Notes: generated by a model not told the origin, from the letters alone. Numbered from the stretch's first letter, positions 13,278 through 62,761 are shown. The stretch is 64,000 nt of DNA from Pachysolen tannophilus NRRL Y-2460 (GCA_001661245.1 KV454016.1:371381-435380), one strand, 5' to 3'. Made by a program: numbers and translations.

Positions 13278-14153
13278 TCATTCGATATGTTCCTTTGTCG
13301 ATCTTCTCCGAATTGCTTCAAAAACAGGGTTTAATTTAAACTTTATTCTAAAAGCAAATTCAATAATTGATCTGGGTAACCATGCAACAACTGTTGAAAC
13401 ATAAGTTGCCTTTGTACCCCTATAAACATTTAATGGATCAGATTTACTTAACATATCATCAACGACTTTACGTGCGAAAACATCAGGTTCCATTGGATGA
13501 TTTTTATCAGACATTTTCTTTCTTTCTTCAAAAGCTTCAAGAGTCTCTGGTAAATAATAATGTGATGTAGCTGGTAACAGCCTCTTATCGGCAATATTAG
13601 TATGAACACCACCTGTAACTATATTCAAGACTTTAACTCCAAAAGGCTGCAATTCTAAATGAAGCACAGAACAGTATTGATGAATTGCAGCTTTGGAAGC
13701 TGAATATATTGAACCCCAAGGAAAAGGAGCAATTCCTGCAAGGGATCCAGTGAATGCAACACAACCTTTAGCCTTGATCAATAAGGGAGCAAATTCTCTT
13801 GTCATTCTAATAGGAGCAAAAAAATTTACTGCAAAACATTTATAAACTGAATCATCATCAACATCTATTGCAGGCATGGTACAAGACAGACCAGCATTAT
13901 TATACAATAAATCCAATTTACCTCCAGTCTTATTAGAAATTAAATCTCTAACTTCTAAAACTTTTTCCAGATTTGTAACATCCAAAGAAATTGGTTCAAT
14001 ACCATATTCAACTAAATCTTTCATATTTTCAAAATTTCTTGCACATGCAAATACTTTAAAACCTCTTTGAGCTAATTCAATAGAAACAGCTTTACCAATA
14101 CCTGAAGATGCACCTGTCACCAAGGCATATTTTTGTTCCGTTTCTTGTGACAT
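13278..14153 (-). CDS. AYR1: NADPH-dependent 1-acyl-DHAP reductase (short-chain dehydrogenase)
   Basis: ALVTGASSGIG, LYNNAG, YSASKAAIHQY, TGGVHTNIADKR; first ATG at 14153. Confidence 0.92.
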   Translation of the reverse strand: MSQETEQKYALVTGASSGIGKAVSIELAQRGFKVFACARNFENMKDLVEYGIEPISLDVTNLEKVLEVRDLISNKTGGKLDLLYNNAGLSCTMPAIDVDDDSVYKCFAVNFFAPIRMTREFAPLLIKAKGCVAFTGSLAGIAPFPWGSIYSASKAAIHQYCSVLHLELQPFGVKVLNIVTGGVHTNIADKRLLPATSHYYLPETLEAFEERKKMSDKNHPMEPDVFARKVVDDMLSKSDPLNVYRGTKATYVSTVVAWLPRSIIEFAFRIKFKLNPVFEAIRRRSTKEHIE

Positions 14154-14634
14154 GATAACAGAAATTAAAAGCACAAAAAAAAAAAAAAGAAAAAGAGAAA
14201 AAAATAATTTAGGTGATGAATTGAATTCAAGAAATATAAAATAATTGATTACAGCAATGAATTAATTGTTGTAAGAACAACACCCAGTGTATCTAATCTA
14301 CCTTGTCCAAATATTAAACAAGTTGCACAACTAAACCTCAAATTTGATTTTAACTTCAATTTCAAATCAGCTAATTAAATACTTCAATCAAACTCTCCAA
14401 ATACCTACTCACTACCGTATCCAATCAATGGATCCAAATCCGTGGCAATTATTTTATAGATTAATTCGAATTGTAGCTATTTAATTGTTGTATTTTTAAA
14501 TAAATTAAGTGATGAGTTGCGGAACCGTTGATGATTTCAGACGACTCTTTTTTTTTTTCCTTCTTTTTTTTTTTAATTATGACCGCATTAAAAATTTCCA
14601 AAGCTATGAATGAGAGATATCTGTTTCTACATAG

Positions 14635-16032
14635 ATGAATGTTTTGAAGATTCTTTGTGGTGCAATGAAAAGATCGGTGATGGGTTCTCCAATAAATGTG
14701 ATATCGATAATAGGTACAACTGGTGTTGGTAAATCTCAGTTTAGTATAGAGTTAGCCAAAAGATATAATGGGGAAATTATCAATGCTGATTCTATGCAGA
14801 TGTATAAAAGATTGGATATTATAACTAATAAGCATCCGATAGAGGAAAGGGAAGGTATAGAACATCACGTTATGAATCATGTTGATTGGGATAAAGAGTA
14901 TGTGATTCATAGGTTTAGAGAAGAGGCGATGCTGAAGATAAAAGAGATTCATGAAAGAGGTAAGGTGCCCATTATTGTTGGTGGAACTCATTATTATTTA
15001 CAATCGTTATTGTTTAATAATAAGACTATAAAGACCAATGAGCAGATATTGGAAGAAGATGATGAGATGAGGAATTTGGAAAAAAAATTAACAAGGGAGG
15101 AGTTAAATATACTTAATGATTCTTCTCCTGCTGAACTATACAGTTATTTACAAAAAATTGATCCTATTGTATCTGAAAAATTTCATCCAAATGATTCAAG
15201 AAGGATTAAAAGATGTATTGAAATTTTTTTCCTTACAAAGAAAAGAGCTTCTGATTATTATGATGAACAACTGGCAAATAAAAAATTTGAATCAAGTTTA
15301 AATTTTAATACTTTAATATTTTGGTTATGGTCTGAACAAAGTGTCTTAGCTAAAAGGTTGGATGATAGAGTCGATAAGATGCTTGCAGAAGGTGGCATTG
15401 ATGAAATTAATGAACTATATAGGTACTATTCATCTTTAAAAGTTAAACCAGATTGTGAACACGGTGTTTTCCAAGTCATTGGTTTTAAAGAATTTTTACC
15501 CTGGTTAGATTCAAATAGTTTACAAGATGATTTATTTAAAAAATCCATAATGGATATGAAAACTAGAACTAGAAGGTACGCAAAGAGACAAGTTAAATGG
15601 ATAAAGAATTCATTAGCTAGAGATTTACTGAGCGAATCATTACATAATTTTTCTAATGGAGGTAAGATATATGTTTTAAATGCTACAGATTTACTGAATT
15701 GGAATGATGAGGTTTACCAAAGAGGTTCTTCAATAGCTAAAAAATTTTTATCATCAGATCTGGGACAAATATTGGAACCACAAACCCCGGAAGGTTTGGA
15801 AGATTTATTACCATCTTTTGAAAACAATGTTGATGATCATAGTATCCGCACACAAAACTGGAAACATTATGAATGTGACATATGTAAGGACGATAATGGG
15901 AAACCATTGGTATTTGTTGGAGAACAATATTCAATACATTTGAAAAGCAGAAAGCATAGATCGTATTTGAATAAGGGAAAGAAAAAAAGAGAATACGAAG
16001 AACGGTTAATGTCTAAAAGACAAACATTATAG
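14635..16032 (+). CDS. MOD5: tRNA dimethylallyltransferase
   Basis: GTTGVGKS, INADSMQMY, VGGTHYY, IGFKEFLPW, C-terminal zinc finger (CxxC...HLKSRKH). Confidence 0.96.
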   Translation: MNVLKILCGAMKRSVMGSPINVISIIGTTGVGKSQFSIELAKRYNGEIINADSMQMYKRLDIITNKHPIEEREGIEHHVMNHVDWDKEYVIHRFREEAMLKIKEIHERGKVPIIVGGTHYYLQSLLFNNKTIKTNEQILEEDDEMRNLEKKLTREELNILNDSSPAELYSYLQKIDPIVSEKFHPNDSRRIKRCIEIFFLTKKRASDYYDEQLANKKFESSLNFNTLIFWLWSEQSVLAKRLDDRVDKMLAEGGIDEINELYRYYSSLKVKPDCEHGVFQVIGFKEFLPWLDSNSLQDDLFKKSIMDMKTRTRRYAKRQVKWIKNSLARDLLSESLHNFSNGGKIYVLNATDLLNWNDEVYQRGSSIAKKFLSSDLGQILEPQTPEGLEDLLPSFENNVDDHSIRTQNWKHYECDICKDDNGKPLVFVGEQYSIHLKSRKHRSYLNKGKKKREYEERLMSKRQTL

Positions 16033-16123
16033 ATTTGATTAATAATACCTTTATATACAGCGTTACTTATATTCGTTAATTCCAATATTAATTGAAATGA
16101 AAATGAAAAAAAAAATTCTTTTA

Positions 16124-26294: not shown

Positions 26295-27227
26295 ATGCCC
26301 AGGATATCACCAAGACTCATACTAGAAGCTTATAAAATACACCCATATTTACCATACTTATTACCAGCATGTAAGACAATATTTCAAGCTAAATTAGAAC
26401 TTGGTTGGATAATTAATGAATTACCAGTATCAAAACATAAATCTGCAATCAAAAAAAGGTTTCGATTATATCCTTTACAATACATTTTGGGGAATCAACC
26501 TTTTGGTTCTAACTTGAAGATTGAATGTAAAAAAGGAGTATTGATACCAAGACTGGATACTGAAGAATGGTGTATGGAACTTTGTAAAAAATTGAGAAAG
26601 ATTAAAAATCCAAATGATTCTTTAAAAGTGTTGGAAATTTGTAGTGGCAGTGGATGTATTTCATTATTAATTGGTGAACAATTAAAAGATTATTTACTGG
26701 AACTTGATATATTAGGGGTTGATGTTTCTCAAATATGTGTTGATTTATCTCAAAAGAATTTGGAATTGAATCATAAATATATAAATTCCAATAAAACTTT
26801 GATTAATTTTATAAAAGGTGATTTGTTTAATAAAGATTTACTTTCATCATTACCTATACAAAATCATGAGTTAGTTATATCAAATCCACCATATATTCCT
26901 CTTGAAGAATATAATGTATATCATGGTGGTTTAGAAAAATCGGTGATTAAATATGAACCAAGATTAGCATTAGTAGGGAATTTAGAAGTTTACAAGTCTT
27001 TATTGGACAATTTTGTTTTTAATAATAAATCATGTAAAAGTTTTATATTTGAAGTTGGTAATAAGAAACAAATTGAATTTGTTCGTGATTATATATTATT
27101 CAAGAAATTTTCTTGGAATGTTGGTTATAGAATAGATTCAAATGGTCAATATAGAAATGTTGTTGGATGGCAAAGAGATTGTAATTATGATTTATTACAA
27201 AAAATGTGTACTAGTATATATAATTGA
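26295..27227 (+). CDS. MTQ1: mitochondrial release-factor glutamine methyltransferase (HemK/PrmC family)
   Basis: PLQYILGNQPFG, VLIPRxDTEEW, EICSGSGCI, ISNPPYI, YEPRLAL. Confidence 0.92.
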   Translation: MPRISPRLILEAYKIHPYLPYLLPACKTIFQAKLELGWIINELPVSKHKSAIKKRFRLYPLQYILGNQPFGSNLKIECKKGVLIPRLDTEEWCMELCKKLRKIKNPNDSLKVLEICSGSGCISLLIGEQLKDYLLELDILGVDVSQICVDLSQKNLELNHKYINSNKTLINFIKGDLFNKDLLSSLPIQNHELVISNPPYIPLEEYNVYHGGLEKSVIKYEPRLALVGNLEVYKSLLDNFVFNNKSCKSFIFEVGNKKQIEFVRDYILFKKFSWNVGYRIDSNGQYRNVVGWQRDCNYDLLQKMCTSIYN

Positions 27228-31035: not shown

Positions 31036-33300
31036 TTAGTTTGCAAAATTCCCCAAATTATGTTCTTTGATATAATCTGGTCCCATTTCTTCGTAATCCT
31101 GTTTGCTAATATAACTCTTTTCACATTCAGGTGTCTTTGACCATAAGCTCATACCTCTCCAAGCATCTAAAGTAGGATTTTCTGCTTTTCTTATCTTTAA
31201 TTCCGTTCCAACAGGTAAAAATGATCTGAATTCAGTGTATAATCTCTCTTCAAAATTTTGAAAATATCCTTGACCACCAGTAATGAATATATCTTTACAA
31301 ACTTCATATCTCTTTTCATCACTTAATCTATTCCATATAATGTTTTCACTAATCTCTATTATACCTGCCTGGTCTATACCAGCAATACTTGAAGGCTGAA
31401 ACATAATTTCAGGTACCTTAATCCTTTCCACATTTAAGTGAATTCTATGTTGTTCATGCGAGTCTTCTTGATTGAATGGTCTAGGTCCTCTAAGAAATTT
31501 ATGCACTACGGAGTTTCTCCAATTAAAGTTATTTGCCATCGTATCTTCAACGGTAAAGTTAGGATCATATTCCAATAATTCCTGCTCGATCTTTAAAATT
31601 TTAGTATCTTCCTCTTCTTCAAATTCTGATTCTTGTTCCAGATTTTCTCCAATATCCCTATAAATAGCCCAATCATCATCATTGGCTCCAAAAGTATCGT
31701 TTGGATCATTATCAATAGTTGCATTTTGATTTCTTCTACGTCTATTAGAGTTAATGCTGTCAACACCATTTTTATCATCCGAGGCCAATGAAGCAATATT
31801 TTTCATACGCTGTTGAGCTGCATGAGATTTTCTATTGTTTAATTCTTCCTTCAACTTCTTTCTCTCCTTCTTCTTGTTCAAAATCACTTGCAACTGAGAT
31901 CTTTTCTCAGCTATCCATCCATTCAAGTCAGTTTCTCTAAATCGTTTATCTTTTAACTCTTCTTCCTCTTTTCTTTTTTGCTCCAGAAGTTTTTCTTCTT
32001 TTGCTCTTTGTCTAGCCTCAAAATTCGACTTCATCAATCTCTGTTTACGTTTTTCTTTGATCTCGTCTTCATCAAGTTGATCATCTGGAATATCTACTAA
32101 AGGAAAATTATTGGTTTCAGCGGCAGGACCTTCATCTTCACCAACATCCTGATTTCTTGCTCTTTTCAAAGATTTTTCTAAATTAGTCATATATTTTTTA
32201 AAATCCAGCTCATCATCAAAACCTTCTGTAATAAGTGTATTCAATATGTGTTTTTTTGAGGTATTTGCAATTTCATTTCTAATCTTTGAAAAATATTCAA
32301 ATTCCTGTTCTTTTTGAACTAATTTTTCCAATCTTTTCTTTCTCAGCATTTCTTGTAATAACCTACCGCTTTCTTTTCTCTTTTCAGTTTCCAATCTTAA
32401 TTCTTCTTCAGTCTTTTGTGGCTTAATAACTTCAGTAAATGGTGCTTCCACACATACATCTTTCTGTTCCAAGACATCCATATCTAAATAGGACCTCATC
32501 TCTTGGTCAAAGTCAGTTGATATATAACAATGATCTTTTATTAAATAATCAATTTGAGAATTGGTAAATTTCGATGGGAAATATGGATATTTTAAATTTA
32601 ATGAACGTTGAAGATAATTTACCGCTGAATTTCCACCCCAATCAATTCTTTTACATTCATTTAAAATACCTTTACCATCTAAGACTGGAATAATATGAGT
32701 TGCTTCATGTCCTGTTCCGATAACCAACCCATCTCTACCACTGTTGGCATAAAAACTAAACAATGAATCTATACCACTTACAACTTTTGGGACTTGATAA
32801 GCTTCAAAAAGTAACTGATACATGTTCCTTCTATGTGATTGTGGAGCCCCAACAATTTCAGTGAGTAATATTGGGTTATTAACAAATCCAGACGAGCTCA
32901 CACCTAAATGCAGTAACGAATAATCAAGTATAGATTCCACATAATCCCAATTGGTAACTAAATTCCCATCAAAAGGTGATTTCGAAGAAGATTTAACGCT
33001 AGGTTCCAAGTAGATATCATTTCCGACAATTGTCAAAGTCTTGGTGAGTTTCCTATCTCTATAACGTGACACAATCGTAGGAAACCTATGAGATGGCATC
33101 GCACCATTGACCAAACCAACTCTTGTTTCCGATTTACCTAAATCTATAGCTATTGGCACATTTTCTGAATAATCAGTCGATATATATTCAGGTTGTGTTG
33201 TAGGTGCCAAGTCTCGAAGTGGATACACTTTCTGAGGTGGTAAATCCTCATCCCTAGAATGATTATAACGGCCGCTCTTGCTATTACTGCTGACAGGCAT
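31036..33300 (-). CDS. ARP5: INO80 complex actin-related protein 5
   Basis: Actin fold with charged insertion, KSHAAQQRMKNIASLA, DTFGANDDDWAIY, LNVERIKVPEIMFQP, DAWRG, YIKEHNLGN. Confidence 0.96.
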   Translation of the reverse strand: MPVSSNSKSGRYNHSRDEDLPPQKVYPLRDLAPTTQPEYISTDYSENVPIAIDLGKSETRVGLVNGAMPSHRFPTIVSRYRDRKLTKTLTIVGNDIYLEPSVKSSSKSPFDGNLVTNWDYVESILDYSLLHLGVSSSGFVNNPILLTEIVGAPQSHRRNMYQLLFEAYQVPKVVSGIDSLFSFYANSGRDGLVIGTGHEATHIIPVLDGKGILNECKRIDWGGNSAVNYLQRSLNLKYPYFPSKFTNSQIDYLIKDHCYISTDFDQEMRSYLDMDVLEQKDVCVEAPFTEVIKPQKTEEELRLETEKRKESGRLLQEMLRKKRLEKLVQKEQEFEYFSKIRNEIANTSKKHILNTLITEGFDDELDFKKYMTNLEKSLKRARNQDVGEDEGPAAETNNFPLVDIPDDQLDEDEIKEKRKQRLMKSNFEARQRAKEEKLLEQKRKEEEELKDKRFRETDLNGWIAEKRSQLQVILNKKKERKKLKEELNNRKSHAAQQRMKNIASLASDDKNGVDSINSNRRRRNQNATIDNDPNDTFGANDDDWAIYRDIGENLEQESEFEEEEDTKILKIEQELLEYDPNFTVEDTMANNFNWRNSVVHKFLRGPRPFNQEDSHEQHRIHLNVERIKVPEIMFQPSSIAGIDQAGIIEISENIIWNRLSDEKRYEVCKDIFITGGQGYFQNFEERLYTEFRSFLPVGTELKIRKAENPTLDAWRGMSLWSKTPECEKSYISKQDYEEMGPDYIKEHNLGNFAN

Positions 33301-35765: not shown

Positions 35766-37442
35766 ATGTCGTCTGAAAATAATTTTAGTATTCAAGGTTA
35801 TAATTTAGTTACTTTATTGAAAAGGTTAGAAGCAGCTACTTCTAGGTTAGAAGATGTTACTATTTTTCAAGAGAATTCCAAGAAAGATGTTTTACATGCT
35901 TCGGATTATACTGCAACTCAGAGGCAAGCACCTCGTACGAAATCAGTAGGGCAAGGTCTGGGACAGGATTTGAATCTGGAATCAAGTCAGCCGAGTGCTC
36001 AGGCATCATTACCTGTTTCTATAAAAGAATTTGATAGTTTAATTGAAGGTTTTGTTAAGCCATTTGTTGATAAATCTGAAAAAGTGGATCCAGTTGTTGG
36101 TGAAGTGGGTAGTACTTTATTAAAGGCATTTATAGAAGAAAGAAATTTTTTATTAGCAGTTTCAAAAAGTAAAAAAATTGAACCTTCAAACCCAATTTTT
36201 GCTCAAGCTTTAAAACCTATTAATGAGCAAATTGAAAAAATTATACTGATTAAAGATCAAAATAGACGTTCAAAATTTTTCAATAATTTAAATGCTGTTG
36301 CAGAAGGTATACCTGTATTGGGTTGGGTTGTTGTACCAACACCTATAAGTTATATTCCAGAGTATAAAGAATCCACCGAATTTTGGTCAAATAGAATTTT
36401 AAAAGAATTTAGAGATTCACTGGATACTTCTCAGGTCGAATGGGTTAAATTGTTACTTTCCATATTTGACTGTTTAAAAGTCTACGTCAAGCAATATCAT
36501 TCTACTGGGCCTTCATGGGATCCCAATGGTGGGTCTTTGGAAGATGCCTTAGCTGCAACTACCGCTGCTGTTGCTGATGGACCTATTCCAAGTACAGGTC
36601 CTTCAAGTTCTACAGGTGCACTGCTGGCACCACCACCTCCACCACCTCCACCACCACCTCCTGCATCTGTTTTCGAATCAGATCCTAATTCTTCCTCTGG
36701 TGCTCTGACATCAGACACCGGTATCAATGCAGTCTTCTCTGAATTAAATAAAGGTGAATCAATTACATCTAGCTTAAAGAAAGTGGATAAATCACAAATG
36801 ACGCATAAGAACCCATCATTAAGAGATTCATCTACAGTTCCAGCCGTGTCTAAGAAAGTTCCTCCAAAGAAACCCGTTAGCTTATCGAAGAAGTCTGCTG
36901 CTGCTGCTGCTGCTGCGGCTGCCGTAACTGGTGGTGTTGCTTCTGATTCGGCACCAAAGAAACCACCTAAGAAGGAACTTGTTGATACAAAATGGGTTAT
37001 TGAAAATTTTGAAAATACTCACGATTTAATTGTTGAAAATGGTCAAATGAACCAATCTGTCTTCATTGCAAATTGTAATAACGTTACTATTCAAGTTAAG
37101 GGGAAAGTTAATGCATTATCTATAAATAATAGTCATAAAGTCGGTCTAGTTGTAGACTCAATGGTCTCTGGTATAGATATCATCAAGTGCACCAAATACG
37201 GAGTTCAAATACTAGACCAAGTTCCAACCATATCAATCGATCTGTCAGATAGTGGACAAATCTACTTGAGTAAGAATTCGTTAAATACAGAGATATATAC
37301 ATCTTGTACCACCGCATTGAACATTGAGATTCCTGATCAGGAAACCGGCGATTTCAAAGAAGTTCCTGCTCCAGAACAATTAAGACATTCTTTCGATGCA
37401 ACCGGTAAGATGGTCACCAGCATTGTTGAACACGCAGGCTAG
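35766..37442 (+). CDS. SRV2: adenylyl cyclase-associated protein (CAP)
   Basis: IQGYNLVTLLKRLEAATSRLEDV, poly-Pro, WH2 LKKVDKSQMTHKNP, C-terminal CARP domain ending VEHAG. Confidence 0.97.
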   Translation: MSSENNFSIQGYNLVTLLKRLEAATSRLEDVTIFQENSKKDVLHASDYTATQRQAPRTKSVGQGLGQDLNLESSQPSAQASLPVSIKEFDSLIEGFVKPFVDKSEKVDPVVGEVGSTLLKAFIEERNFLLAVSKSKKIEPSNPIFAQALKPINEQIEKIILIKDQNRRSKFFNNLNAVAEGIPVLGWVVVPTPISYIPEYKESTEFWSNRILKEFRDSLDTSQVEWVKLLLSIFDCLKVYVKQYHSTGPSWDPNGGSLEDALAATTAAVADGPIPSTGPSSSTGALLAPPPPPPPPPPPASVFESDPNSSSGALTSDTGINAVFSELNKGESITSSLKKVDKSQMTHKNPSLRDSSTVPAVSKKVPPKKPVSLSKKSAAAAAAAAAVTGGVASDSAPKKPPKKELVDTKWVIENFENTHDLIVENGQMNQSVFIANCNNVTIQVKGKVNALSINNSHKVGLVVDSMVSGIDIIKCTKYGVQILDQVPTISIDLSDSGQIYLSKNSLNTEIYTSCTTALNIEIPDQETGDFKEVPAPEQLRHSFDATGKMVTSIVEHAG

Positions 37443-39826: not shown

Positions 39827-41686
39827 TTAATGATCGCTGTGAGTTAAGGCATCTTCCACTTTTCTCTCTTCTTCTTGAGCGCGCATTTCTTGTTGTTGTT
39901 CTTGTTCCTGCTGTTGCTGTTGTTGTTCTTGTTCCTGCTGTTGCTGTTGTTGTTCTTGTTGCTGCTGCTCTTTCTCGGAAGCTCTTGCCCTCTCTCTTTT
40001 TTTCCTATTTTCAATCCAAGTTTCACCTCTATGAACAACCAAATAAATTAAAATATTACCCAACATACATAACAGAGCCATGAATGTGTAACAACCTCCT
40101 GTTGTCATTCTTGCAATCATTTTCGACAATGCTGCAACAAATACAGCACCTGTCCAACATCTCAAAAGGTTGACAGCAGAAGTAGAAGTTGCAGACCGCT
40201 CTGGAAACAAATCTACTAAAACAGTAGTACACATAGTCATTGGAAACATACAAGCAAATGCCATGAAAAATGTAGAAATGATAATCAGTGATACATTTGT
40301 ATGCGCATAAATAGTCCATCCAAATACGAGTAATGATGCTGCACAAAGTGAAGAAGGGTAAATGAACAAATTCAAACGAGCTTTGATAATATTAAGTTTT
40401 CTATCTTTTGGTATCTTATTTTGTTGTTGTTTTAATCTGAACAGTTTCTTTTCACGTCTGTAAAAAAAATCTAATATTTTCCCACAGGTTAAAGAACCAA
40501 CTAATGTAGCAACTCCACAAGGTAAATAGAACAAACCAATATCTAAAGTCTCGTAGCCATAATCGTCTGCCAAAACAGAAGTTAAAGTAGTTAATCCCAT
40601 TGTCCAAGATGTAAAAATCAAAGCTGCTGGGAATAAAGAACAGAAAACTTCTGGTAATATAATTATCTTAAAAGTAGCAATAGCATCAAATTTTGTAACT
40701 GATTTCTCTAATGATTCATATTGTTGATTTGCATAAAACTGTTTTTGAAAATATGGAAGTTTCAAGATTGGTGCTCTATTTACAAAACGTTTTGGTTTCA
40801 CTGTAACATTTCCAACCATTGTTCTCTTTGTTTCTGGTAAAAAAATGATTGCACAAATCAACATGACCCCAGCAGATATAGCTAAAAACCAAAATATTCC
40901 TCTCCAACCAAATGAAGATTGTGCAATAACAGCACCTATTAAAGCACCAAAACCTTGGCCAACAAGTGTTACACCACCCATAATACCAATATACGATCCT
41001 CTTTCATGTTTCTGTGTGATATCACCTACAACACCTGAATTAATAGCAATAACTGGCGCAATACCCGCCAGCTGTACACATCTTAAAACTAAAATTAACC
41101 AATACAGATCACTAACTGCTAACCCTATATTTGCAGCAATGTAAACAGACAATGACATAATAATAACAGGTCTTCTACCTAATGTATCAGCCAAATTTGA
41201 AGAAAAAGTTGGACCTAAACCTTGGAAAATCAAATAACAAACCACTGAAATATTTATCAATTCACTACTAACATCAAATTTTTTTTGAAGAACAGTTAAA
41301 ATTGGGAAATAAATTGGCATTGCTATAGAAGACCATAACCCAATACATGAACATAAAGTCACTATAAAAGCTTTCTCTTTCCCAGTAAGCAGTGAATACG
41401 GCACTTTTGCCCATCGCTGATTTGCTGTGTTATTAGAATCATATGTATTGGCTATCGATTGTTGTACTGACAGATTATCTGAACGCGTACGAACTATATC
41501 ATTCCCAAAATCAGTCACTATATTCTGTACTTGATAATCATTATTATTGTTATTATTTTCCTCGTTATCACTCAAATCACCACTACTATCACTATCACTA
41601 CCACTACCATTACCGCTACCACTATCCATCGATTCAATTTCCAGAGGATCAGATTCAAGTTCCTTCAACCTAGAATCCGCTATCAT
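39827..41686 (-). CDS. MFS drug:H+ antiporter (DHA1; QDR/AQR1 subfamily) with a poly-Q/E tail
   Basis: IYFP, LADTLGRRPV, LRCVQxAGIAPVIAINSGVVGD, GWRGIFWFL, LPETKR, VNLLRC; convergent with YDJ1 as AQR1 is in S. cerevisiae; start codon uncertain. Confidence 0.9.
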   Translation of the reverse strand: MIADSRLKELESDPLEIESMDSGSGNGSGSDSDSSGDLSDNEENNNNNNDYQVQNIVTDFGNDIVRTRSDNLSVQQSIANTYDSNNTANQRWAKVPYSLLTGKEKAFIVTLCSCIGLWSSIAMPIYFPILTVLQKKFDVSSELINISVVCYLIFQGLGPTFSSNLADTLGRRPVIIMSLSVYIAANIGLAVSDLYWLILVLRCVQLAGIAPVIAINSGVVGDITQKHERGSYIGIMGGVTLVGQGFGALIGAVIAQSSFGWRGIFWFLAISAGVMLICAIIFLPETKRTMVGNVTVKPKRFVNRAPILKLPYFQKQFYANQQYESLEKSVTKFDAIATFKIIILPEVFCSLFPAALIFTSWTMGLTTLTSVLADDYGYETLDIGLFYLPCGVATLVGSLTCGKILDFFYRREKKLFRLKQQQNKIPKDRKLNIIKARLNLFIYPSSLCAASLLVFGWTIYAHTNVSLIIISTFFMAFACMFPMTMCTTVLVDLFPERSATSTSAVNLLRCWTGAVFVAALSKMIARMTTGGCYTFMALLCMLGNILIYLVVHRGETWIENRKKRERARASEKEQQQQEQQQQQQEQEQQQQQQEQEQQQEMRAQEEERKVEDALTHSDH

Positions 41687-45733: not shown

Positions 45734-48700
45734 ATGGATCATTACGATAATAAGAAAGAAGAAACAAGTGGGAAACGAGTGTCGACTCAAGATTTGAAAA
45801 CTCAATTTAGTGATTTACAAAATAAGTTCTTCAATGAAAAATCAAATTCTAATGATGTTAATAAGAAACAATCGAATTTAAGTTCTTTTGCAAGGAGGAA
45901 ATCAGTAAGTTTTCAATGGTTTATGAACCCAAAAAGAATAAAAAAAGAAAAAATTTTTTTTTCTTTCTTTCTTTCTTTCTCTTCTTGGGCTTTTGGAGTT
46001 TGGAGTTTTTACTAACATGAAGGTTTGGGTAACCCAATTTTTTTTTTATTTTTTTTTTATAGAGGGAACCAGATGCAGACAAGAGAGCTTCTTTACTGTC
46101 GATGCCAATGCCAATGCAAATGCAAATGCCGCTTATGGGCGGGAACAGCTCGCATGCTTTATCGGCCTCAGGGGGGTCATCAGGAACCTCAGGGACCTCA
46201 GCGGCAACAATGGCATCAGCGGCAGGTCAGAACGACGTTAACTTTGTTGTTGGATTGTCGGAAAACTTGTTATTAGAATGTAGGCGGTTAAATTTTGAAA
46301 ATTCAAAACTTTCAAAAGAATTGCAAGAATCAAAAAATAATCTGGATAGTATTTCAAAACAATTAAATAATATAATAACAATTAATAAAAAATTGTTAAC
46401 ACAAGAAGATGATTTAAAAGAGAAAAATTATTTATTGGAAAATACTTTTAATGATTTTAAATTAAAATATGATCAATTATTAGGTGAAAATCAAAAAACA
46501 ATTTCTAAAAATTTAGAAATTAAATCTATAAATGATAATTTAAAAAATGAATTAGAAGATTATAAAAATAAAAATTTAGAATCATCACAAAATTTTAATC
46601 AATTAAAACAACAATTGAAAAATGAAAATAAATTATTAAAATCACAAAATGAACAATTAAATGATGAAAATGATAATTTACACAAAAATTGTGTAGAATT
46701 AAAAGATGAATTGAAATCAATCAAGTCTAAACAACAATTATCTACTATCCCACTTTTACCATTTAAACAGGATTTAACCTTTAATGATAACAATAAAAGT
46801 GGTGATGATTCTTTAATTGAAGAACCTTCAAGTTCTCCTATAAGGAATATAGATAAGGATAATTTGGAATTGGAAAAAATAACCTTAAACAGTAATGTTT
46901 TACATTTAAATGAAATGATAAACAAATTGAAATCGGATAATTTAAAACTTAAATCAGAGAAAAATGAATTAGAAAAAAAATTAACAGATTCATCTATTAT
47001 AGTTCCATCTTCAAATAAAATATTATCGGGGAAAAAAATTAAACTGGATTCACCAAGATCACCAGGGTCTCAATACTCTATCCTCCCTTCAAATAGAAAC
47101 AGTAAATATGATTCATCTATGGATACCGATTGGGAAGAGTTAAACATTGCCGATAACAAACCATCCCTTTTACCACCTTTCCACGAAAATAATACTTCAT
47201 CGGATGAAGAAAGCGATTCTGGATTTGCGGAATCTTCAAAACAACAACATAGATTATTGTCTCAAGAATTGCATGAATTTGAAGCAAATCAGAATAATAC
47301 AAACGCCATAATTGATGATTATATTACTAAAAATAATTTGAAATTAATACCTATCGATCAGTATAATCGTTTGAAGAAACTAGAAATAGCACCACAACCA
47401 ACTCAATTAGAAAATTCTTCCATGATATCTGCAGCTGAGGATTTTGATATAGTGGCTTTACCTAATGTTGAAGCAGATAGTCAAAAGGATAAGACATCTT
47501 TGGAATATTTGCAACAAAAATGTAAAGAACATAACATGGTTGTTGTTAGTAATTCTGATTTTCAAAAGTTGCTCGATGATAAAGATGAATTATCCAACAA
47601 ACTCCAGTCTACATCTAATATAGAAAGACAAATAGTTGAATTGAATAGTTTGATTGGATCTTTGAAATCTGAAAAATCATCATTGATTGAAAATATCGAA
47701 CAAATCAAAGCTAATCATCAAAGTTCATTAACTACTAAAAATGATGAAGTACTACAGTTGAAGCAATCTTTAGAATCTTTGAATAATGTGAATAATGAGA
47801 ATTTATTGAAGTTAAACAGTGTTAACCTGGCACATGCCGACAAAATGAAAGATATTGCAAATTATGAGACCCAGTTGAAAGAGAAAAATCTCATGACAGC
47901 GGAATATGAAAAAGAAATTCTGTTGTTAAATGCTAATTTGGATAACATCAAGGAAACTCACACTTTTGAAATTAAAACGTTGAACGATAAAATAAAGGAT
48001 CAAGAAGTTTCTTATAGCGAGCTATTGAAACTTAAAGAGGAATTAGAAAATTCTAAATTAAATTTGACCAAACAATGTGATGATCTTCAATTATCACTTA
48101 GTAGTAAAGATATTGCAATTGATTCGCTAACTTCGGAGAAAAATGATATTACTCAAAAATTTGATCTGTTAGAGAAAGAATTCACTAGTAAAATTGCAAG
48201 CTATCAATTATTAGTAACACAAGAGCAGGAGTTGAGACAGAAATCAGATCAATTATTGAATGAAAAGGATGTGTTGATTTCAGAAAATAATACTTTAAAC
48301 AGTAATTTGGAAAAATTAGAAGGTAACTTAAAAGAATACACTGAGCTTTTGAGTTTGAAAGATAATGACATTGCTGAAATTACTTCTGACCTTAAAAATT
48401 TGAAAGCAGAACATTCAGCATTACTGGTTAATTTAAATTCTTTGTTTGCGGAAAAAGAAGAGTTGGCTAAAACTTCTGATTTACTGCTTGCCACTAAAAA
48501 TGAAGATATTTCGAACTTGACATCCCAAATAGAATCCCTAGAAGCAGACAAGACCGAATTATTGAATAAATCTACAGAATTATCTAACGACTTAGATTCT
48601 AAAACAAAAGATAAGGTGATATTAGAACCTCTGGTGTATAATATGCTTTTAAAAGATAAAAGTAATTTAGATGCAGAAATTAAAGAGATGAAGGAAAAAA

Positions 48701-51700
48701 TTACCAAAATGGATGAGGAACATAATCTGGTTCTTAAAAATAAGAATAATGAGATTAGTGAGAGTTTAAAGGAATTAGAAGCATTGAAATTTGAGAAAGA
48801 TGAATTAATCGATAAATCACAGAAGGATAATGAAAACCATGAGATGATGGTCAAACTGAAAGAAGTCGAGATTGATAAGCTCAATGCAAGTGTATTGTCC
48901 GTGGAGTCACTTCTCAAAGATCATCAAAACTCATTTAAAGACTTAATGAATGACAAAAATTCTTTGGAAATTGAAATCAAGAATATCAAAGATGAAAATG
49001 AAGCTCTATCAAGTAAGATTGTGGAATTGGAAAGTTCTTATAATAATTCGGTGGAAATGGAGAATTTGTTGAAATCTGAAAAGGCAGAATTAATAGATAA
49101 GGAGGTTAAAGTGAGAGATGAGTATAACTTAACATTACAATCCAAACAGGAAGAAGTCAACGTCTTAACTAAAAGATTGGAGTCAATAGATGATTTAAAA
49201 CCAATTGTTGAAGCAATGAACTTTGTTATTCTCGACAAGGATGAATACGATTCCTTAGTCAAATTATCCGAAGAAGAATTGTCGTTGGATGAATTAAAGG
49301 AAAAAGCGAAATCGTTTAATATGGAACTATTACCGTGCGAGAGATCTTCACCAGCAGCATCAAAAGTTTCATTAAGTAAAGCAAAGTTTGAGGAACTTAT
49401 AAAGAAGGAGCAACAAACGGATGAAAATTTCAGTGTAATGAACACTATCAAGTCGTTAGGTTTTGTTACTTTGAATAATAGTGACTACAAAAGGTTGGTT
49501 GAGAACCAGAAAGAATACACGCCAACGATTTCGGATGTTTATAATGCAGCTAAAGGTTTTAACTTGACTGTTATGCCGACTGCGGAATATAAAGATTTAC
49601 TAAAGAGACGTTTAGAACCAACAACTGCTGAAGAACTTGCCATTTTGAGTAAAAGATTAGGGTACAGAATAGTACCAATACTTGATCCTTCATTAAATAA
49701 AGGAGATGGTGTTTCTAGTTTATTGAGCAGCAGTACTGATGACGATGATTTTGAAGATGCGGCTAGTCATTTACCCTCACTTTCAGACAATAAAAGCGAC
49801 CATAGCATATCTAAACTATCAATTAATGAATTCAGTGATGCTGATGAAGAATATGAGAGATTATTACTTCGGGCTAAAAGCTTCGGTTATGATCTCATTC
49901 CAATTGGCGAGGTCGATGATAGAATGCATCTTTCTAGAAGATACGTTGAGAGTGATCAGGAAACAATAGAAAGTAAATCAACTGAGGAAGATGCCGAAGA
50001 TACTATTCATGGACCTATTTTTGAATCAGGTGCTACGTACGAAGCATCTAAAGACGGCTTCATCAGCATTCCAACAGAAGACTTCGAGTTATTGTCATCT
50101 ACAAAGATTTTGAGTATGACGGAAATCTCTAAGATTGTCAATAACAGAGGCTATGTATTGATAAAAGAAAACGAATTAGAAGAACTTAAATCTGAACTTA
50201 CAACGAAGAGTAACGACCATGCTGTTTTGAAAAATGAACTTATGTCTATTAAAAAAACCAAAAATGAGGAACTTCCCGCAAAAGAGGATTTAGTAAATGG
50301 ATTGAGTCAGTTTGGTATGGTTGCAGTTAACGTAGATGACTATAATAACTTGCTATCTCAATTGAAAAAATTAGAGAACAATCCACAATTAGATACATTA
50401 GAATCTGTCACGACTCTGGCTTCGGGTCTTGGATTGGTAACTTTAAGCCTCGAAGAGTATAATGCATTAAAAGAGAAATCCGAAAACAATGTATTTTCAC
50501 TTGATGATGCTAAACACCTTGCATCTGAAAATGGCATGGCTATAATTACTTTTTCAAGGTTACAGAAACTTGAGAAATTTGAACTGAATAAAGAAAATAT
50601 AACAGAAGCTGATCTTATCAAACATGCACCGGAGTTTGGATTGGCTGTTATCCCTCATTCAGAACTATCTAAAGTTAATCGTATATCAGCAACATCTAAT
50701 GATTTAAGCGAACAAAGGTTGATTGAGCGTGCGAACGAATTAGGGCTTGTTGTTATTTCTAAAGATGAGCTAGCTGAGTTGAAGACTCCTGGTTCAAATA
50801 TTTCACCAAATGATTTAGCAATGAAGGCTGCTGAATTTGATTTAGTTCTCGTTTCGCAGTCGTCATATGATGATTTGAAGAAAGCTGCCATTTCTAATGA
50901 TCATTTTAAGGCTACCAGCAAAGAAGACATTCAAACTCTTGCAAAAGGTTTTGGATTACTATGTGTTCCAGAATCATCGTTTGTTGCCACCACTGTCTCA
51001 AGGCATCCGGATGTTGACAATGTTGTTGTCGTTCCAACAACTTACTATAACAAATTATCAAGATGTCTTTCACTTTCAGTTGAAAGAATTTCGAAGTCCC
51101 AATTACTGGAACATGCAAAGAAGCGTGGTTTAATTCTTGTTGAAGACCGTCAAGCTTCAAGTGATCTGGGTAGTGTGTCTTTGGCCGCTTATCAAAGTCC
51201 AGTAATTGGCGATAACATGAACGAAACTGAATTGAAAAGTTATTCTGGAAAACCGTTTAATCAAGTTCCGCGTGCGGAATCTATCAATGGTAATTTGATC
51301 AATTCTCCTTCACATTTCTCCCTTTCAACTAACATTTCATTAACAGATCGGAATATGATACCAGCACTTACGCAGACTATTATAGGGGAGTATTTACACA
51401 AGTACTATCGTCGTCTTGGTCCCTTTAGTTCAATTTCTGAAAATCGTCACGAGAGGTATTTCTGGATTCATCCATATAGCTTAACGCTATACTGGTGTAA
51501 TAAAAACCCAGTATTTGGTGATCCTTCGTCAAATAAGATTCGTGCGCTAGCCATATTAGCCGTTGATAGTGTTGAAGATAACAACCCACTTCCTCCAGGA
51601 TTATACCATAAGAGTATTATTGTTCGTTCATCGGACAGAAATATCAAAATTACATGTCCTACAAGACAACGTCATAACATTTGGTACAATTCTTTACGTT

Positions 51701-51924
51701 ATTTAATTGAGAGAACAACCGATGGATTAGTTTTTGATGATAACGGAGAAGATCGAAATGATGACAATTACACTGCAGATGAATTCGTGCATTATGATAG
51801 AGCTAATGAACAATTCCGTCATTCTAAGCCAAGAGCAACTTCAAATGCATTTCCTCATAAGGGTATTCGCTCATTATCTAATTCTATTAGTAAACAATCG
51901 CTTTTTTCAGGTCCAAAGACTTAA
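45734..51924 (+). CDS. NUM1: nuclear migration protein / cortical dynein anchor; exons 45734-45904 and 46063-51924
   Basis: GLSENLLLECRRL coiled-coil start, degenerate Num1 repeats, C-terminal PH domain (IIGEYLHKYYRR, HERYFWIHPY, CPTRQRHNIW); phase-0 intron GTAAGT...TACTAAC(46010)...TAG. Confidence 0.92.
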
Positions 51925-56510: not shown

Positions 56511-58658
56511 ATGGCACCTGTGTATGTGAAAGGAGGGATTTGGACAAATGTTGAAGATGAGATATTGAAGGCATCTATATCTAAGTATGGGTTAAACCAA
56601 TGGGCTAGGGTTTCTTCTTTATTGGCTAAAAAGACTGCTAAACAGTGTAAGGCCAGATGGTTTGAGTGGTTGGATCCAACTATAAAGAAATTAGAATGGT
56701 CTGCAGAAGAGGATGAAAAGTTATTAAGATTGGTAAAATTATTACCTAACCAATGGAGATCCATTGCACCTATTGTTGGAAGAACTCCAACACAATGTAT
56801 TGAAAGATATCAGAAATTATTGGATGAGATGAATGACGAAACTACATCTAATGAATTGGGACTACAAGGCTCAGGAATTGAAACGATGCTGCCAGTTGGT
56901 AGGAATTTACGAATAGGTGATATAAACGCTAATCCAGAAAGTAAACCTGCAAGACCAGATGCTGTTAATATGGATGATGAAGAAAAGGAAATGTTATCCG
57001 AAGCTAGAGCTAGATTAGCCAATACACAGGGGAAAAAAGCGAAAAGAAAGGCAAGGGAAAGAATGTTGGATGAGAGTAGAAGAATTTCTTTGTTACAAAA
57101 AAGAAGAGAATTGAAAAATGCTGGTATTAATATTAAATTGAAAAAAAATAAAAAAAATGATAATAGAATTGATTATAATGCAGATATTCCATTATATCAG
57201 AAACCTCCAACTGGGTTTTTCGATACTTCGGAAGAAATTGAAAATAATTTGAGAGAACAACATAATTTTGAAAATAAAGTAAAACTGGAAGGAATTAAAA
57301 ATATAGAATTTGAAAAACAAACTAAAAATGAAAAAAGAAAGAAACAAAATGAAAGGAAACGGAGAGATAATCAACAGAATGAAAATCAGATTGAAGAAAA
57401 CATCACGAAGAGAAGAAAATTGGTTTTACCAAAACCTGAAATTTCTTCAAACGAATTGGACGCGATTATTAAAGTTACTGATAATAATAATAATAATGAA
57501 CTGATTTCCGAAAATGATAATTATATAGGAGATTTTGCATTGAAGCATTTGCTGACAGGTTTAGATGAATCAAGGGGAAAAGATACCTATAAAAGTGAAG
57601 AACAAGTGGGAAAAGGAATTAAAACAGAAATGCAAGATTTTCAACAAAGAACAGAACTGCAGAATTTATTGCCTAGTTCAAAATCCTTCCCAACAGTTCA
57701 AGACTCAAATAAAGTCTTTCAGGTGACTGAAAGTAATGAGAAAAGTAAAGAAAGTTCATTGGAAGTTAAAAACTTTGATCTCCTGGCATTATTCGGTTCA
57801 TTACCAAAGCCTGAGCATGACTATGAATCAATACTTCCCGAACTCATAGATGATATTTCAGAGGAAGATGAAGAAGATGAACAATTGGAGCTTGTAAATA
57901 ATAAACATGCACATTTTCTGGAAATCGTGGATGAAGGTGAACGCTCAAGACTATTAGAGATTGCTCAAAAACAAGAAATGGAAAAAGCCGCATCAAGGAG
58001 GTCACAAGTATTACAGAGAAGCCTACCGATACCCAACATTTTGGAAGAGGGTATTAAATTGAAAAAGTTGCCATATTCAGATGAAATTGATTCTACCATT
58101 AATGATGTTATGACTCAGTTAATAAGGTCAGATTTCGTGAAGAAAAATAATATTACTACGCTGAATGTCCTGTTATTGGATGATTTGGATGACGAAATTA
58201 AAACTGAAATTGACCAAAAAATTAGAGAAGAAGAGCTTCAAATGCCAAGTTCGCTTTCCATATACAAGAATACAATCTTTGACTATTACTCCAATGAGAA
58301 TTATAGATTACCTGGCTTAAATGGTACTCCAGCTCCACCTTTGAAACAAGTTCAATTGTTAATTGAAAATCTAAAAACTATATCTTCAAAATCTTCGATT
58401 TTAGAAAATAGGTTTAGGGAAAAAAATGAGAGTTATGAAATGATTAATAAGGAATTAATTTCGGAAAACGAGCAAATAGTGAAAAATCTTATGGAGAAGG
58501 ATTTAGAATATGCTGTCTATGAGAAAATGCTAGCCATGGAAAAATTAGCCATAGAAAACAGAAGAAGCTTTTTGCAGGAAAGCGTTGATCAATTAGTTAG
58601 AGCAGAAACTTTTGGACAAATGAGGTACGAAGAATTGAAAAATACGAATACAGATTAG
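56511..58658 (+). CDS. CEF1: Prp19-complex Myb splicing factor (CDC5L)
   Basis: [56 protein letters not shown]. Confidence 0.97.
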
Positions 58659-58767: not shown

Positions 58768-60552
58768 TTAATCAAACTTTATTCCAGCGCTTGGCTTCCA
58801 CAAGCCACTATGAGCAGCGTTTTCTTTAGACTGGGAGTTTACTTCTCCCTCCTCACCACTGTTTTTATTAACCTTGTGAACCATTGATTCATTTGAATCT
58901 ATACTATTATCATTATCGTTATTATTTTCATCTTCAACTTCTAATGTTTGCGTTTTGGGCATAGAATTTGACGTCAACTTCTGTTGTTTCAAATGAGATG
59001 TCTTTTGGTGAGCCATCTGATCTTCTAAAGAGGTTTCTAGTTTTTTGCGAGCAAAAGCAAATTGATCACATTCGGCAATTAACTCACAAGTAATTGTATT
59101 TACAAAATTATTGTAAAACGTTTTCCCCTGTGATAAATTGTTCAAAATCTCACTGTATCCATCAAAGGCTTCTTCCAAAATTTTTAAACTGTTAGCTCTT
59201 TTTTCATTAACGTTTTGTAAGTAAGAAGATGATCTTGATAAGAATATTTCATTTTCTTTATCTATCTTTTTTTCAAGATTAATTTGTTCATTTTTAAAAC
59301 TTTGCAAATCAGCAAAGTCACTATCAAAAAGTTTTAAAACATTTTTTTCATAAACAGATTCAAAAGATGATTCATCAAGGGATTTCTCTTCTTCAATTTG
59401 CGATAAATTTTTTTTATATTCTGATATCAAAATTGATAAAATATTCAAATTTTCTGATTTCAAATGCAAATTCTCTATAAATTGACAATTTCTATCGATC
59501 AACTTTTTGGCCTTATTAATTAACTCATTTAAATTATTAATTGACGACAAAATATTCTGGTCTAAATTTACAACTTTCGACAGAGGTATAAAATTCTTTA
59601 ATTCTTCTTTACCACTTGGTGAATCAACTTCAGTCATCAATTTAACATAGGGCACTAAGCTATTAATTTGTTCTTTAATTACATTATCACCATCTTTAGC
59701 CTGATTTAAATAAGTCTCAAATTTTTCAATTTTTAGAAATAAACCTTCTAGTTCTGATGGATCTCTGTTCCAGGCTTTTCCATATTTTCGTCTCAATGCA
59801 GCATCTTCTTCAGCTTCGAATTTCATTCTTTCCCTACAATTGACTATCAAATCATTACTTTTCGAAGAAAGTTTGTTTAATTCATCCATAGCTTTTTGTA
59901 ATCGCAAACATCCTCCTTGCTTCAGTAATTCACTACAATTTAGTAATACATTATCGGGTAGACTCTGGGGCTTTGATATGGAATCAATTGAAGAAGGTAA
60001 ATTTCTTTCGTTTAAAAAATCTTTGAGCATTTTGTTTAACTGGTTGATTGGGTTTATTAAATTTTTATCAACAAATTCCTGTTGACGTTCTTTAAAAGCT
60101 TGAGAAGTCTTAATTACAATATAAGGTAATAAGTTTTCAAATAACAATTTTTGATTTGATTCTTTCAAAATTTTAATTGGATTTTCAAAATCCAGTGGAA
60201 TCAATGTTTTAACCATTGAAGCACCAATAATTGGTTTCAAATCTTTCAGCAGTGGTACATGTACAAGATAGATTAAATTATTATCACGTTCTGCTGTTGT
60301 TAAAGACTCCTTAACAATTTTATTAAAATTTTGTAATTCATTAACCACTTTTGTACTTACATTTTTAGAATATTCTAATCCATTATTTGATTCTTCAAAT
60401 GCTATTTTTAAATGTGCAATCTGTTCACCATATTTAAATTTATTCAAATAATTCAACGAAGTCCTATAATTTGCCACTGCTCTAAAATGGAATTTTTTCA
60501 AAAGTATATGGTTCATAATTTTCAGTTTTAATAAAAACTGAGATTTATTGTT
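58768..60552 (-). CDS. RIM20: 3' part of RIM20/PalA (end of the BRO1 domain plus the ALIX V domain), separated from its 5' part by an inversion
   Basis: HILLKKFHFRAVANYR, KYGEQIAHL, AERDNNLIYL, NLPSSID, NLSQGKTFYN, terminal GLWKPSAGIKFD; no ATG at the break. Confidence 0.9.
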   Translation of the reverse strand, partial: NNKSQFLLKLKIMNHILLKKFHFRAVANYRTSLNYLNKFKYGEQIAHLKIAFEESNNGLEYSKNVSTKVVNELQNFNKIVKESLTTAERDNNLIYLVHVPLLKDLKPIIGASMVKTLIPLDFENPIKILKESNQKLLFENLLPYIVIKTSQAFKERQQEFVDKNLINPINQLNKMLKDFLNERNLPSSIDSISKPQSLPDNVLLNCSELLKQGGCLRLQKAMDELNKLSSKSNDLIVNCRERMKFEAEEDAALRRKYGKAWNRDPSELEGLFLKIEKFETYLNQAKDGDNVIKEQINSLVPYVKLMTEVDSPSGKEELKNFIPLSKVVNLDQNILSSINNLNELINKAKKLIDRNCQFIENLHLKSENLNILSILISEYKKNLSQIEEEKSLDESSFESVYEKNVLKLFDSDFADLQSFKNEQINLEKKIDKENEIFLSRSSSYLQNVNEKRANSLKILEEAFDGYSEILNNLSQGKTFYNNFVNTITCELIAECDQFAFARKKLETSLEDQMAHQKTSHLKQQKLTSNSMPKTQTLEVEDENNNDNDNSIDSNESMVHKVNKNSGEEGEVNSQSKENAAHSGLWKPSAGIKFD

Positions 60553-60597: not shown

Positions 60598-61006
60598 TAA
60601 CTCAAGTCACTTTTTTAAGTGCCTTTCTTTTTTTATTTTATTTTATTTTTTTTTTTTTTTTTCCTTTTCAACTTTATACTATTTACTGATGACTCAAATA
60701 TACGATATGAACTTACCCAAATGACGACCTTAGACTAGATCCCATAGTCTTTAGATTTGTTTAAAACTATTTGAAGTTTGTCTGTACCGTAGTTTTGGTG
60801 GCCTTTTGGTGGTCTTTCCCAATTGGGAAACTCAGTTCTGTTGTGTGATGTGGTGATGATCAAAATCAAAACAACACAACAAATATATATTTTATATTTT
60901 ATATTTTATATATTTAAATTAATGTTATAGCAATTTATAGCAATTCAAGTCGCAAGAGAAGGAGAAGAGGTACAAAAAAAAAACCAAAAAAAACACAAAA
61001 ATAACA

Positions 61007-61690
61007 ATGGAAGATTCATCGAATCTATTGTATATTCCCTATCATAGATCGGATAGTATAAAAATATACCAACTGTTTAAAGATATAATATCAAAAGATT
61101 TTTATCAGTCAGCTACGTTATTTGAAAAAGATTTACAAGATATTAACAGTTTGAGGGATAAATATATAGCGATTATTAATAGCGAGGGTAATAATATTGA
61201 TTATTCAAATTTTGTTAATCAGTTGAAGAATTATTACAATCAATTGTGTTCTATTTCTAAGAAATTTCCAAATAATGAAATTGAATTTACTTATTATAGT
61301 AATGATTTAACATATCAGTCTTCTAAAAAAACTATTTTAAAATCGTTTAATTTTGAAAAATTGAATGTGCTTTATAATATAGGCTCATTTTTTTCTATTT
61401 ATGCTTTTAAACAGTCCAGAGATGATGATATAGGTTTAAAAAATTCATGTTTATATTTTCAATACTCGGCTGGATGTTTTGAATTTATTGAAAGTTTTTC
61501 CGAGAAAATTGATGATTTTCAAATACCATTAGAATATTCATCAGAAATTGTATCTGGTTTAAAAAATTTAATGTTAGCACAAGCACAAGAGACATTTTGG
61601 CAAAAGGCAAGAAAGGATGGTTTGAATGTTTCTGTAATTGCTAAATTATCTGCACAAGTTGCAAGTTATTATGAAATGTCATTTGATAGT
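61007..61690 (+). CDS. RIM20: 5' part of RIM20/PalA (BRO1 domain), inside the inverted segment
   Basis: LLYIPYHRS, FEKLNVLYNIG, GLKNSCLYFQYSAGCF, LMLAQAQETFWQKA, IAKLSAQVASYY; then runs into antisense JLP1. Confidence 0.9.
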
Positions 61691-62761
61691 CTTTTCTTCA
61701 GTATCCCAATCAAATAAGGCACTATGACAAGCACGTCTATTATCCCAAACAACAACGGTATCTTTTTCCCACTTGGCTCTGGTTTGGATATCCACACCTG
61801 TAGCGATGAAGTTATACAAGAAGTTTAAAATTGCATCACTTTCTTCTTTCTTGAAACCCTTGATGTATCTAGTGAATTGTGGATTAACATAAATAGATTT
61901 TTTCTTGGTTACCGGATGAGTACGAACTACTGGATGTTCATGAGCAACAGGTTCACGGCGAACATGTCCATTACCTAAACGAGCAGTTTCTGCTTGTTCG
62001 AAACCCGAATGAACAGCTGTTAATCCTTCTAAAATTTTTTGAAAATCTGGTGAAAGCCTATCGTATGCTTCTTGTGTATCAGCAAAAGCAGTATCACCAC
62101 CAACTGTTGGTCCATCAAGAATACCCAAGAAAGTCAATCCGAGGGGTTGTAATTCGTATGAAACATCCGAGTGCCATGTCATTGTTGTAATATGTTGTTT
62201 TAAATAAGAACCGGATGATGCCTTAGTATATTTATCCTTATAGACTAAATGAATATTTGGATGACCTCTTGGAGCTCCTGAAGTTGGATGAGAATGTAAA
62301 GGACCATAATATTCACCATATTGTTCAACAAAATCTGGACCTTGAGAAGCAAAATCTTGATCTCTAAAAATGACAACACCTTTTTGAGCAACATATAAGG
62401 CTAAATCATTTTTAGCAGCATCTGAAAGTTTTGATAATTGAATACCATGAATAATTGTACCAAACTTTGGAGTTAATTCTTCAATTTTAATTGAATTAGA
62501 TTCTAAATCATTTGATGGAAATAAATTTTTTAATTTAGGATCTGCATCTAAACCTCTATCTCTAAATTTAAATTCTTTATAAGGTTCTTGCCTTTCAGTT
62601 AAATCCCATGTTGGAGCAAACGCTGGATAAGTTAATTTTTCAGTATCTTCATCAGAAATTAATAAATATTTCTTATCTTCTGATAAGTGTCTATGAATTG
62701 AATATGTGGTCTTGTAAGCACCAACACTATGTACTTCTTTTTTTTCGTTTTCTACAGTCAT
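61691..62761 (-). CDS. JLP1: Fe(II)/alpha-ketoglutarate sulfonate dioxygenase (TauD family), C-terminus displaced by the inversion
   Basis: HPTSGAP, WHSDVSYELQP, GGDTAF, HPVVRTHPVT, WDNRRACHSA; stops before the conserved RH..R. Confidence 0.92.

Follow-up and report, generated by a model that had tools for sequence, protein, structure and literature searches.

We analyzed a 64,000-nt stretch of the genome of the budding yeast Pachysolen tannophilus NRRL Y-2460 (GCA_001661245.1, KV454016.1:371381-435380), hereafter called the window, with positions counted from its first letter. Our subject is the decoding of its in-frame CTG codons, which a first-pass annotation made from the sequence alone had read as alanine. 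The window has a G+C content of 31% and contains 28 open reading frames (ORFs) of at least 150 amino acids. We analyzed 27 of these, because the ORF at 9691-10452 on the minus strand overlaps a longer ORF of the SUN family and was therefore omitted. Pfam matches identified DnaJ proteins, DML1, a SUN-family protein, an AYR1-like dehydrogenase, MOD5, CTU2, TRAPPC11, EAF7, GCD10, NOP2, ARP5, LYS9, SRV2, YDJ1, a QDR-type transporter, a NUM1-like protein, EFR3, CEF1, RIM20 and a TauD-family dioxygenase, so that, as far as Pfam assignments go, the predicted genes of the window are ordinary budding-yeast genes. No tRNA gene was found in the window by ARAGORN or by Rfam at gathering thresholds, and no other Rfam family was found at these thresholds either.

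The 27 ORFs contain 96 in-frame CTG codons among 14,663 codons (0.65%), and 21 of the ORFs (78%) carry at least one. This share is similar to the genome-wide figure published for P. tannophilus, in which 80% of 5288 genes are affected by a total of 16,824 CUG positions (PMC4937558). The first-pass annotation had regarded the scarcity of CTG as part of the signal, and this was not borne out. The position-specific base frequencies of the ORFs lead to an expectation of 76 CTG codons, giving an observed/expected ratio of 1.26, and CTG ranks 41st among the 64 codons, outnumbering CTC, CTA, GCG, GCC, CCG and GTG. All of the CTG sites that had been cited as examples, together with their contexts, were found where that annotation had placed them. 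The CTG codons mostly sit in hydrophilic surroundings or among small residues, unlike Leu codons.

We conducted a column test on four of the 27 ORFs, namely those of ARP5, the QDR-type transporter (QDR), SRV2 and MOD5, which hold 26 of the 96 CTG codons. CTG was translated as X, homologues of each protein were collected, and the sequences were aligned using MAFFT. The four genes and their main CTG sites are as follows.

31036..33300, minus strand: ARP5 (Pfam Actin; match to Arp5 in the PDB, E=3e-240), with 5 CTG codons at 32911-13, 32344-46, 32206-08, 31984-86 and 31639-41
32344..32346, minus strand: ARP5 residue 319, LQEM[CTG]RKKR, a conserved Ala column
39827..41686, minus strand: QDR-type MFS transporter (Pfam MFS_1), with 8 CTG codons
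41069..41071, minus strand: QDR residue 206, LRCVQ[CTG]AGIAP; A 90, S 28 and L 1 of 119 homologues
40286..40288, minus strand: CTG at QDR residue 467; A 50, S 26, V 13, P 11, L 7
40073..40075, minus strand: CTG at QDR residue 538; G 64, A 40, V 6
35766..37442, plus strand: SRV2, adenylyl-cyclase-associated protein (Pfam CAP_N and CAP_C), with 8 CTG codons
36621..36626, plus strand: SRV2 residues 286-287, paired CTG codons ahead of a proline run, GA[CTG][CTG]APPPP
37242-37244, plus strand: SRV2 residue 493, SID[CTG]SD; K 79, Q 37
14635..16032, plus strand: MOD5, tRNA isopentenyltransferase (Pfam IPPT), with 5 CTG codons
15694-15696, plus strand: CTG in MOD5, ATDL[CTG]NW

The alignments comprised 119 homologues each for QDR (from the best 120 of 358), SRV2 (from the best 120 of 1619) and MOD5 (from the best 120 of 5341), and the best 150 of 7041 for ARP5. 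The window's own proteins were taken out of all four alignments. The identity of a homologue to the query never exceeded 70%, and none was removed as a potential relative with the same code. Columns with an occupancy of at least 50% were considered usable, which retained 22 of the 26 CTG columns and dropped QDR 15, QDR 72, SRV2 219 and ARP5 554. The main score was of the Codetta type, that is, the sum over columns of the log frequency of each amino acid. For calibration, the same score was applied to sets of 22 sites drawn at random from the unambiguous codons of the query, with 2000 draws per amino acid.

Alanine showed the best summed log-likelihood over the 22 columns (-50.27). Serine scored -59.35, lysine -76.6 and leucine -87.6, so that serine lies 9.1 and leucine 37.3 log units under alanine. 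When the sites were bootstrapped, alanine was the winner in 4595 of 5000 replicates, with 310 won by serine, 94 by lysine and 1 by glutamine. Alanine also remained first with a pseudocount of 1, 5 or 20, and whichever of the four families was left out. The calibration showed that each of the eight amino acids examined was recovered in 1977 to 2000 of the 2000 draws. The most common residue was A in 5 columns, S in 4, K or E in 3 each, G or P in 2 each, and I, V or Q in one each. Tabulation of conserved columns was the check that the first-pass annotation had itself named, and over the four families combined it places alanine first. It also agrees with the statement that CTG mostly occupies non-Leu columns, as leucine was the most common residue in none of the 22.

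At the level of single columns, QDR 206 is, in these alignments, the most conserved Ala column found among the CTG sites. At ARP5 319, alanine was the most common residue among the best 150 of 7041 homologues (A 67, T 14, L 13), and it occurs in both S. cerevisiae and Chaetomium Arp5 when the PDB alignments are compared by eye. The same comparison places R (S. cerevisiae) and A (Chaetomium) at ARP5 365 and 439, H and V at 130, and P and K at 554. The paired codons of SRV2 fall in columns of small residues (A 42, S 39 and G 27 at 286; G 86, A 16 and S 10 at 287), and the MOD5 columns contain A 32 and S 19 at residue 100, S 47 at 354 and K 80 at 213. The homologue residues that had been named in the first pass were right where they were tested, at ARP5 319, QDR 206, SRV2 493 and MOD5 354.

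We also compared further CTG-bearing proteins of the window (CEF1, MTQ1, RIM20, GCD10 and the AYR1-like protein) with the PDB. The relevant features, listed together with the NUM1-like gene, are as follows.

56511..58658, plus strand: CEF1 (Pfam Myb), with 9 CTG codons
56889-56891, plus strand: CTG at CEF1 residue 127, within a conserved stretch
26295-27227, plus strand: MTQ1, matching bacterial HemK, with no Pfam family at the threshold used
26553..26555, plus strand: MTQ1 residue 87, IPR[CTG]DTE, Pro in bacterial HemK
60247..60252, minus strand: paired CTG codons at residues 89-90 of the RIM20 ORF in the window, VP[CTG][CTG]KDL
13278..14153, minus strand: AYR1-like short-chain dehydrogenase (Pfam adh_short), with 3 CTG codons
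13578-13580, minus strand: CTG in the AYR1-like protein, DKR[CTG]LP
46102..51924, plus strand: NUM1-like gene (Pfam Mcp5_PH), with 14 CTG codons

CEF1 127 corresponds to Ala in both of the PDB chains in which this position is occupied, and the third alignment shown is gapped. In RIM20, residues 89, 90, 198 and 312 align with D, L, I and S of human ALIX, the sole homologue shown, and in GCD10 residues 319 and 289 correspond by eye to E and F of S. cerevisiae Trm6. MTQ1 87 aligns with the Pro of the HemK 'PRP.TE' motif in all four alignments shown (search at 1e-5), three of which are constructs of one protein. Given that the alignments of GCD10, MTQ1 and RIM20 consist of one or two distant homologues each, they were kept out of the likelihood, and they carry little weight for or against alanine. 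The AYR1-like protein gave no match to the PDB at a threshold that was overly strict, and the CTG codons of the NUM1-like gene lie mostly within poorly conserved coiled-coil sequence. On the whole, the PDB comparisons fit a pattern in which CTG occupies variable positions, with Ala wherever homologues conserve a small residue.

Next to the alignments, we consulted the public translations of the locus by searching the public collection (NCBI, UniRef) for exact copies of 10 sequences. ARP5 and MOD5 were found only as translated with NCBI table 26, in which CUG is alanine; their translations with table 1 (standard code) or table 12 (CUG as serine) are not in the collection. YDJ1, a CTG-free control, is present. 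The look-up found SRV2 under none of the three tables, because the public SRV2 model (P0124, PACTADRAFT_70729 of P. tannophilus NRRL Y-2460), which was the best hit of the homologue search, has a gap of 12 residues; it is otherwise identical to the window ORF and carries A at all eight CTG sites. The public QDR protein (P0004) has A at all seven CTG sites that it covers, with one further site lying upstream of the annotated start. Across the four public proteins, A therefore occurs at 25 of 25 covered CTG sites. With regard to the SRV2 model itself, the 12 missing residues (VTGGVASDSAPK) are in frame in an uninterrupted ORF, and the gap is probably a spurious 36-base intron of the annotation.

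Taken together with published work on the species, it is almost certain that nuclear CUG in P. tannophilus is decoded as alanine (NCBI table 26), via an alanine-type tRNA with a CAG anticodon. What this study contributes is the columns and the public alanine translation, and the tRNA and peptide evidence comes from the literature. According to Muhlhausen et al. 2016 (PMC4937558), the tRNA-CAG of P. tannophilus is of the alanine type, with G3:U70 and A73, and lacks the long variable arm required for charging with Ser or Leu. In the same report, liquid chromatography-tandem mass spectrometry yielded 907 CUG positions with full fragment support, of which 97.2% were Ala. The reading of CUG as alanine in the first pass is thus supported both by the window, where it is the best fit to the CTG columns, and by the peptides and tRNA already published. 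The clade that had been named for this code also agrees with the literature, in which Pachysolen, Nakazawaea and Peterozyma form a single Ala clade (Krassowski et al. 2018, PMC5951914). As to the mechanism, the anticodon of an alanine-type tRNA would have mutated to CAG. Alanyl-tRNA synthetase would read the acceptor stem (G3:U70 and A73) and not the anticodon; being blind to the anticodon, it would charge the tRNA-CAG with Ala, so that Ala would be inserted at CUG. A second report of the same reassignment was reportedly published by Riley et al. in PNAS in 2016. The assignment is already established for P. tannophilus, and there is nothing new in it.

Under the standard code, CTG would be leucine, and the non-Leu contexts would have arisen by chance or by fast evolution of the sites. 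Points in favor of this are the hydrophobic alignments at QDR 99 (I/R/L/V), RIM20 90 (L) and 198 (I), and GCD10 289 (F), and the presence in EFR3 of a (CAACTG)n repeat with CAATTG and CAATTA copies, which would be an unbroken (QL)n if CTG were Leu. However, at the DNA level, C-to-T changes within a hexanucleotide repeat in low-complexity sequence account for this pattern. The average share of Leu was 0.03 at the CTG columns, compared with 0.52 at the query's own Leu codons, and the calibration assigned all 2000 draws of true Leu codons to Leu. Neither ARP5 nor MOD5 is in the public collection in its leucine version, as noted above. Leucine decoding thus has practically no chance of being correct; judged from the alignments, the window by itself firmly excludes it, and the column test and the published peptides (PMC4937558) together rule it out.

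Serine is the reading of CUG in the CUG-Ser1 (Candida/Debaryomyces) and CUG-Ser2 (Ascoidea/Saccharomycopsis) clades. It was second in the column test and in the bootstrap, and several results weigh against alanine at this point. The first score that was used, based on mean substitution profiles, placed serine (-60.4) ahead of alanine (-61.5), with leucine at -85.1; it failed to separate alanine from serine because it is blind to column conservation. SRV2 by itself also preferred serine (-15.8 vs -16.7 for alanine), and MOD5 by itself preferred lysine, then serine, then asparagine. The earlier remark that serine is possible at several sites is therefore fair for any single site. The alanine-over-serine margin falls to only 2.4 log units without ARP5, and only 2.1% of the sets of true Ala codons (GCN) gave a margin as low as that of the full CTG set; across the Ala sets, the log-likelihood difference between alanine and serine averaged +24.7 (standard deviation 7.7). 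The hydrophobic columns listed for leucine count against alanine as well, as does MTQ1 87, which in the alignments shown is not an Ala column. Furthermore, the public alanine translation is the table choice of the annotators and not a measurement of decoding.

Nevertheless, the observed difference between alanine and serine (+9.09) was reached by none of the 2000 sets of true Ser codons (mean -30.4, standard deviation 8.4). The sole CTG column that is clearly dominated by either of the two residues is QDR 206, where alanine prevails, and it is the table-26 and not the table-12 versions of ARP5 and MOD5 that are in the public collection. By themselves, the alignments of the window's proteins favor alanine over serine moderately, and the moderate strength of this preference is itself a reservation about alanine. 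Given that the published peptides (PMC4937558) rule out serine decoding in P. tannophilus, we consider it very improbable.

We also considered the possibility that CTG is ambiguous, with Ala predominating over a genuine minor residue, or with a meaning that depends on context (cf. Candida albicans and Ascoidea asiatica). This possibility touches on a further property of the CTG columns, which is that they are less conserved than the columns of GCN-Ala codons. A residue with a share of at least 50% was present in 23% of the CTG columns compared with 42% of the GCN-Ala columns, and the mean Ala share was 0.19 compared with 0.35. Low conservation would be expected if an ambiguous codon were avoided at important sites, but it would also be expected from the way in which alanine-encoding CTG codons originate. 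According to the code table, two bases separate CTG from any GCN codon, so that there would be no synonymous route to an alanine CTG. Such codons would have to start out as Leu, Val, Met, Pro, Gln or Arg codons and undergo an amino-acid change. Since a change of this kind would be tolerated mostly at variable sites, it would explain the weaker CTG columns. At 8 positions the published peptides do show a second residue beside Ala, and at 18 they show only a residue other than Ala (PMC4937558). However, deviations at CUG were no more common than at AUG, which is unambiguous, and CUG was judged unambiguous in that report; the tRNA, having no long variable arm, also speaks against charging with Ser or Leu. 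Ambiguous decoding is thus exceedingly improbable, and the preferred reading remains unambiguous decoding as alanine.

A few CUG codons lie at hydrophobic or Pro columns, namely QDR 99, RIM20 90 and 198, GCD10 289 and MTQ1 87. It is conceivable, although very unlikely, that these sites and the weaker conservation of the CTG columns reflect, at a minority of CUG codons, either residual or context-dependent decoding as something other than Ala, or ancestral Leu codons that came to be tolerated as Ala. If this speculation is true, then the survival of ancestral Leu codons would be relevant to how events followed one another in the 'tRNA-loss-driven' model of reassignment.

When compared with known systems, the window does not differ from the type case of table 26, as it is the same species with the same reassignment. 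The CUG-Ser1 code (table 12, e.g. Candida albicans) is likewise a reassignment of CUG, with CTG at non-Leu columns and a synthetase that ignores the anticodon; it differs in that the inserted residue is Ser there and Ala here, which is the distinction drawn by the Ser calibration sets. In the CUG-Ser2 clade and in Ascoidea asiatica, CUG has been reassigned independently within the budding yeasts, and A. asiatica shows stochastic Ser/Leu decoding (PMC6041473), with competing tRNA-Ser and tRNA-Leu. In contrast, P. tannophilus has one tRNA-Ala(CAG) and decodes CUG unambiguously (PMC4937558). In practical terms, table 26 is needed for translating the window, as otherwise about 0.65% of residues (96 in the 27 ORFs) would be wrong, and the public proteins of the locus already follow it. 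This has been a textbook case since 2016, and no new biology follows. The analysis does illustrate that the reassignment of a sense codon is recoverable without tools from about 100 codons of raw sequence.

Several side observations concern the gene models and the record of the window. The EAF7 ORF starts with M-M-V-[CTG]-M-[CTG]-M (24267-24275, minus strand), and the real start may be an ATG further downstream. The (CAACTG)n repeat, mixed with CAATTG and CAATTA, is located at 54032-54064 on the minus strand, in the low-complexity C-terminal part of EFR3, and reads Q-A-Q-A-Q-A-Q-L-Q-L-Q-A-Q under table 26.

EFR3 itself is broken at an A-run into two overlapping frames (55198-56220 and 53567-55213). 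RIM20 is also disrupted, in that the profile of its BRO1 domain is split, with positions 1-220 on the plus strand (61007-61717) and positions 242-385, followed by the ALIX V domain, on the minus strand (58768-60516). The stretch is covered by five of seven listed sequencing runs, which come from two studies and include no RNA run. We compared the region 53400-62800 with contigs from four sequencing runs (two samples, two studies). The comparison showed no letter differences and two structural differences, both of which were present in all four runs. One is an extra T behind 55207, where the EFR3 frames overlap (55198-55213); with this letter, EFR3 becomes a single uninterrupted ORF of 885 codons. 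The EFR3 split is therefore probably a 1-base deletion error in the record of the window. The other is a joint between 60549 and 61693 on opposite strands, and RIM20 joined in this way is one continuous ORF of 823 codons, free of internal stops, so that the 1,144-base segment 60550-61693 seems to be inverted in the record. No inverted repeats were found at the breakpoints of the inversion; the repeats found were A/T-rich low-complexity pairs located elsewhere. Because there is no other difference in 9.4 kb, an error of the record (for the inversion, a mis-assembly) is a more likely explanation of both anomalies than a difference between strains. Two other contig joints (54067->57324 and 54661->58914) were rejected, since their sides were 21 letters long and were taken as chance matches of unrelated contigs. 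The deletion and the inversion each break a gene and are relevant to annotation quality only.

Finally, in LYS9 (33615-35048, minus strand) the ORF that starts with ATG covers only the C-terminal saccharopine dehydrogenase domain. Read from stop to stop, the frame extends through the GSGF NADP-binding motif and stays open as far as 35048; it contains no ATG ahead of this motif, and a pyrimidine run precedes the open frame. This arrangement suggests that a 5' intron separates a short first exon from the rest of LYS9.

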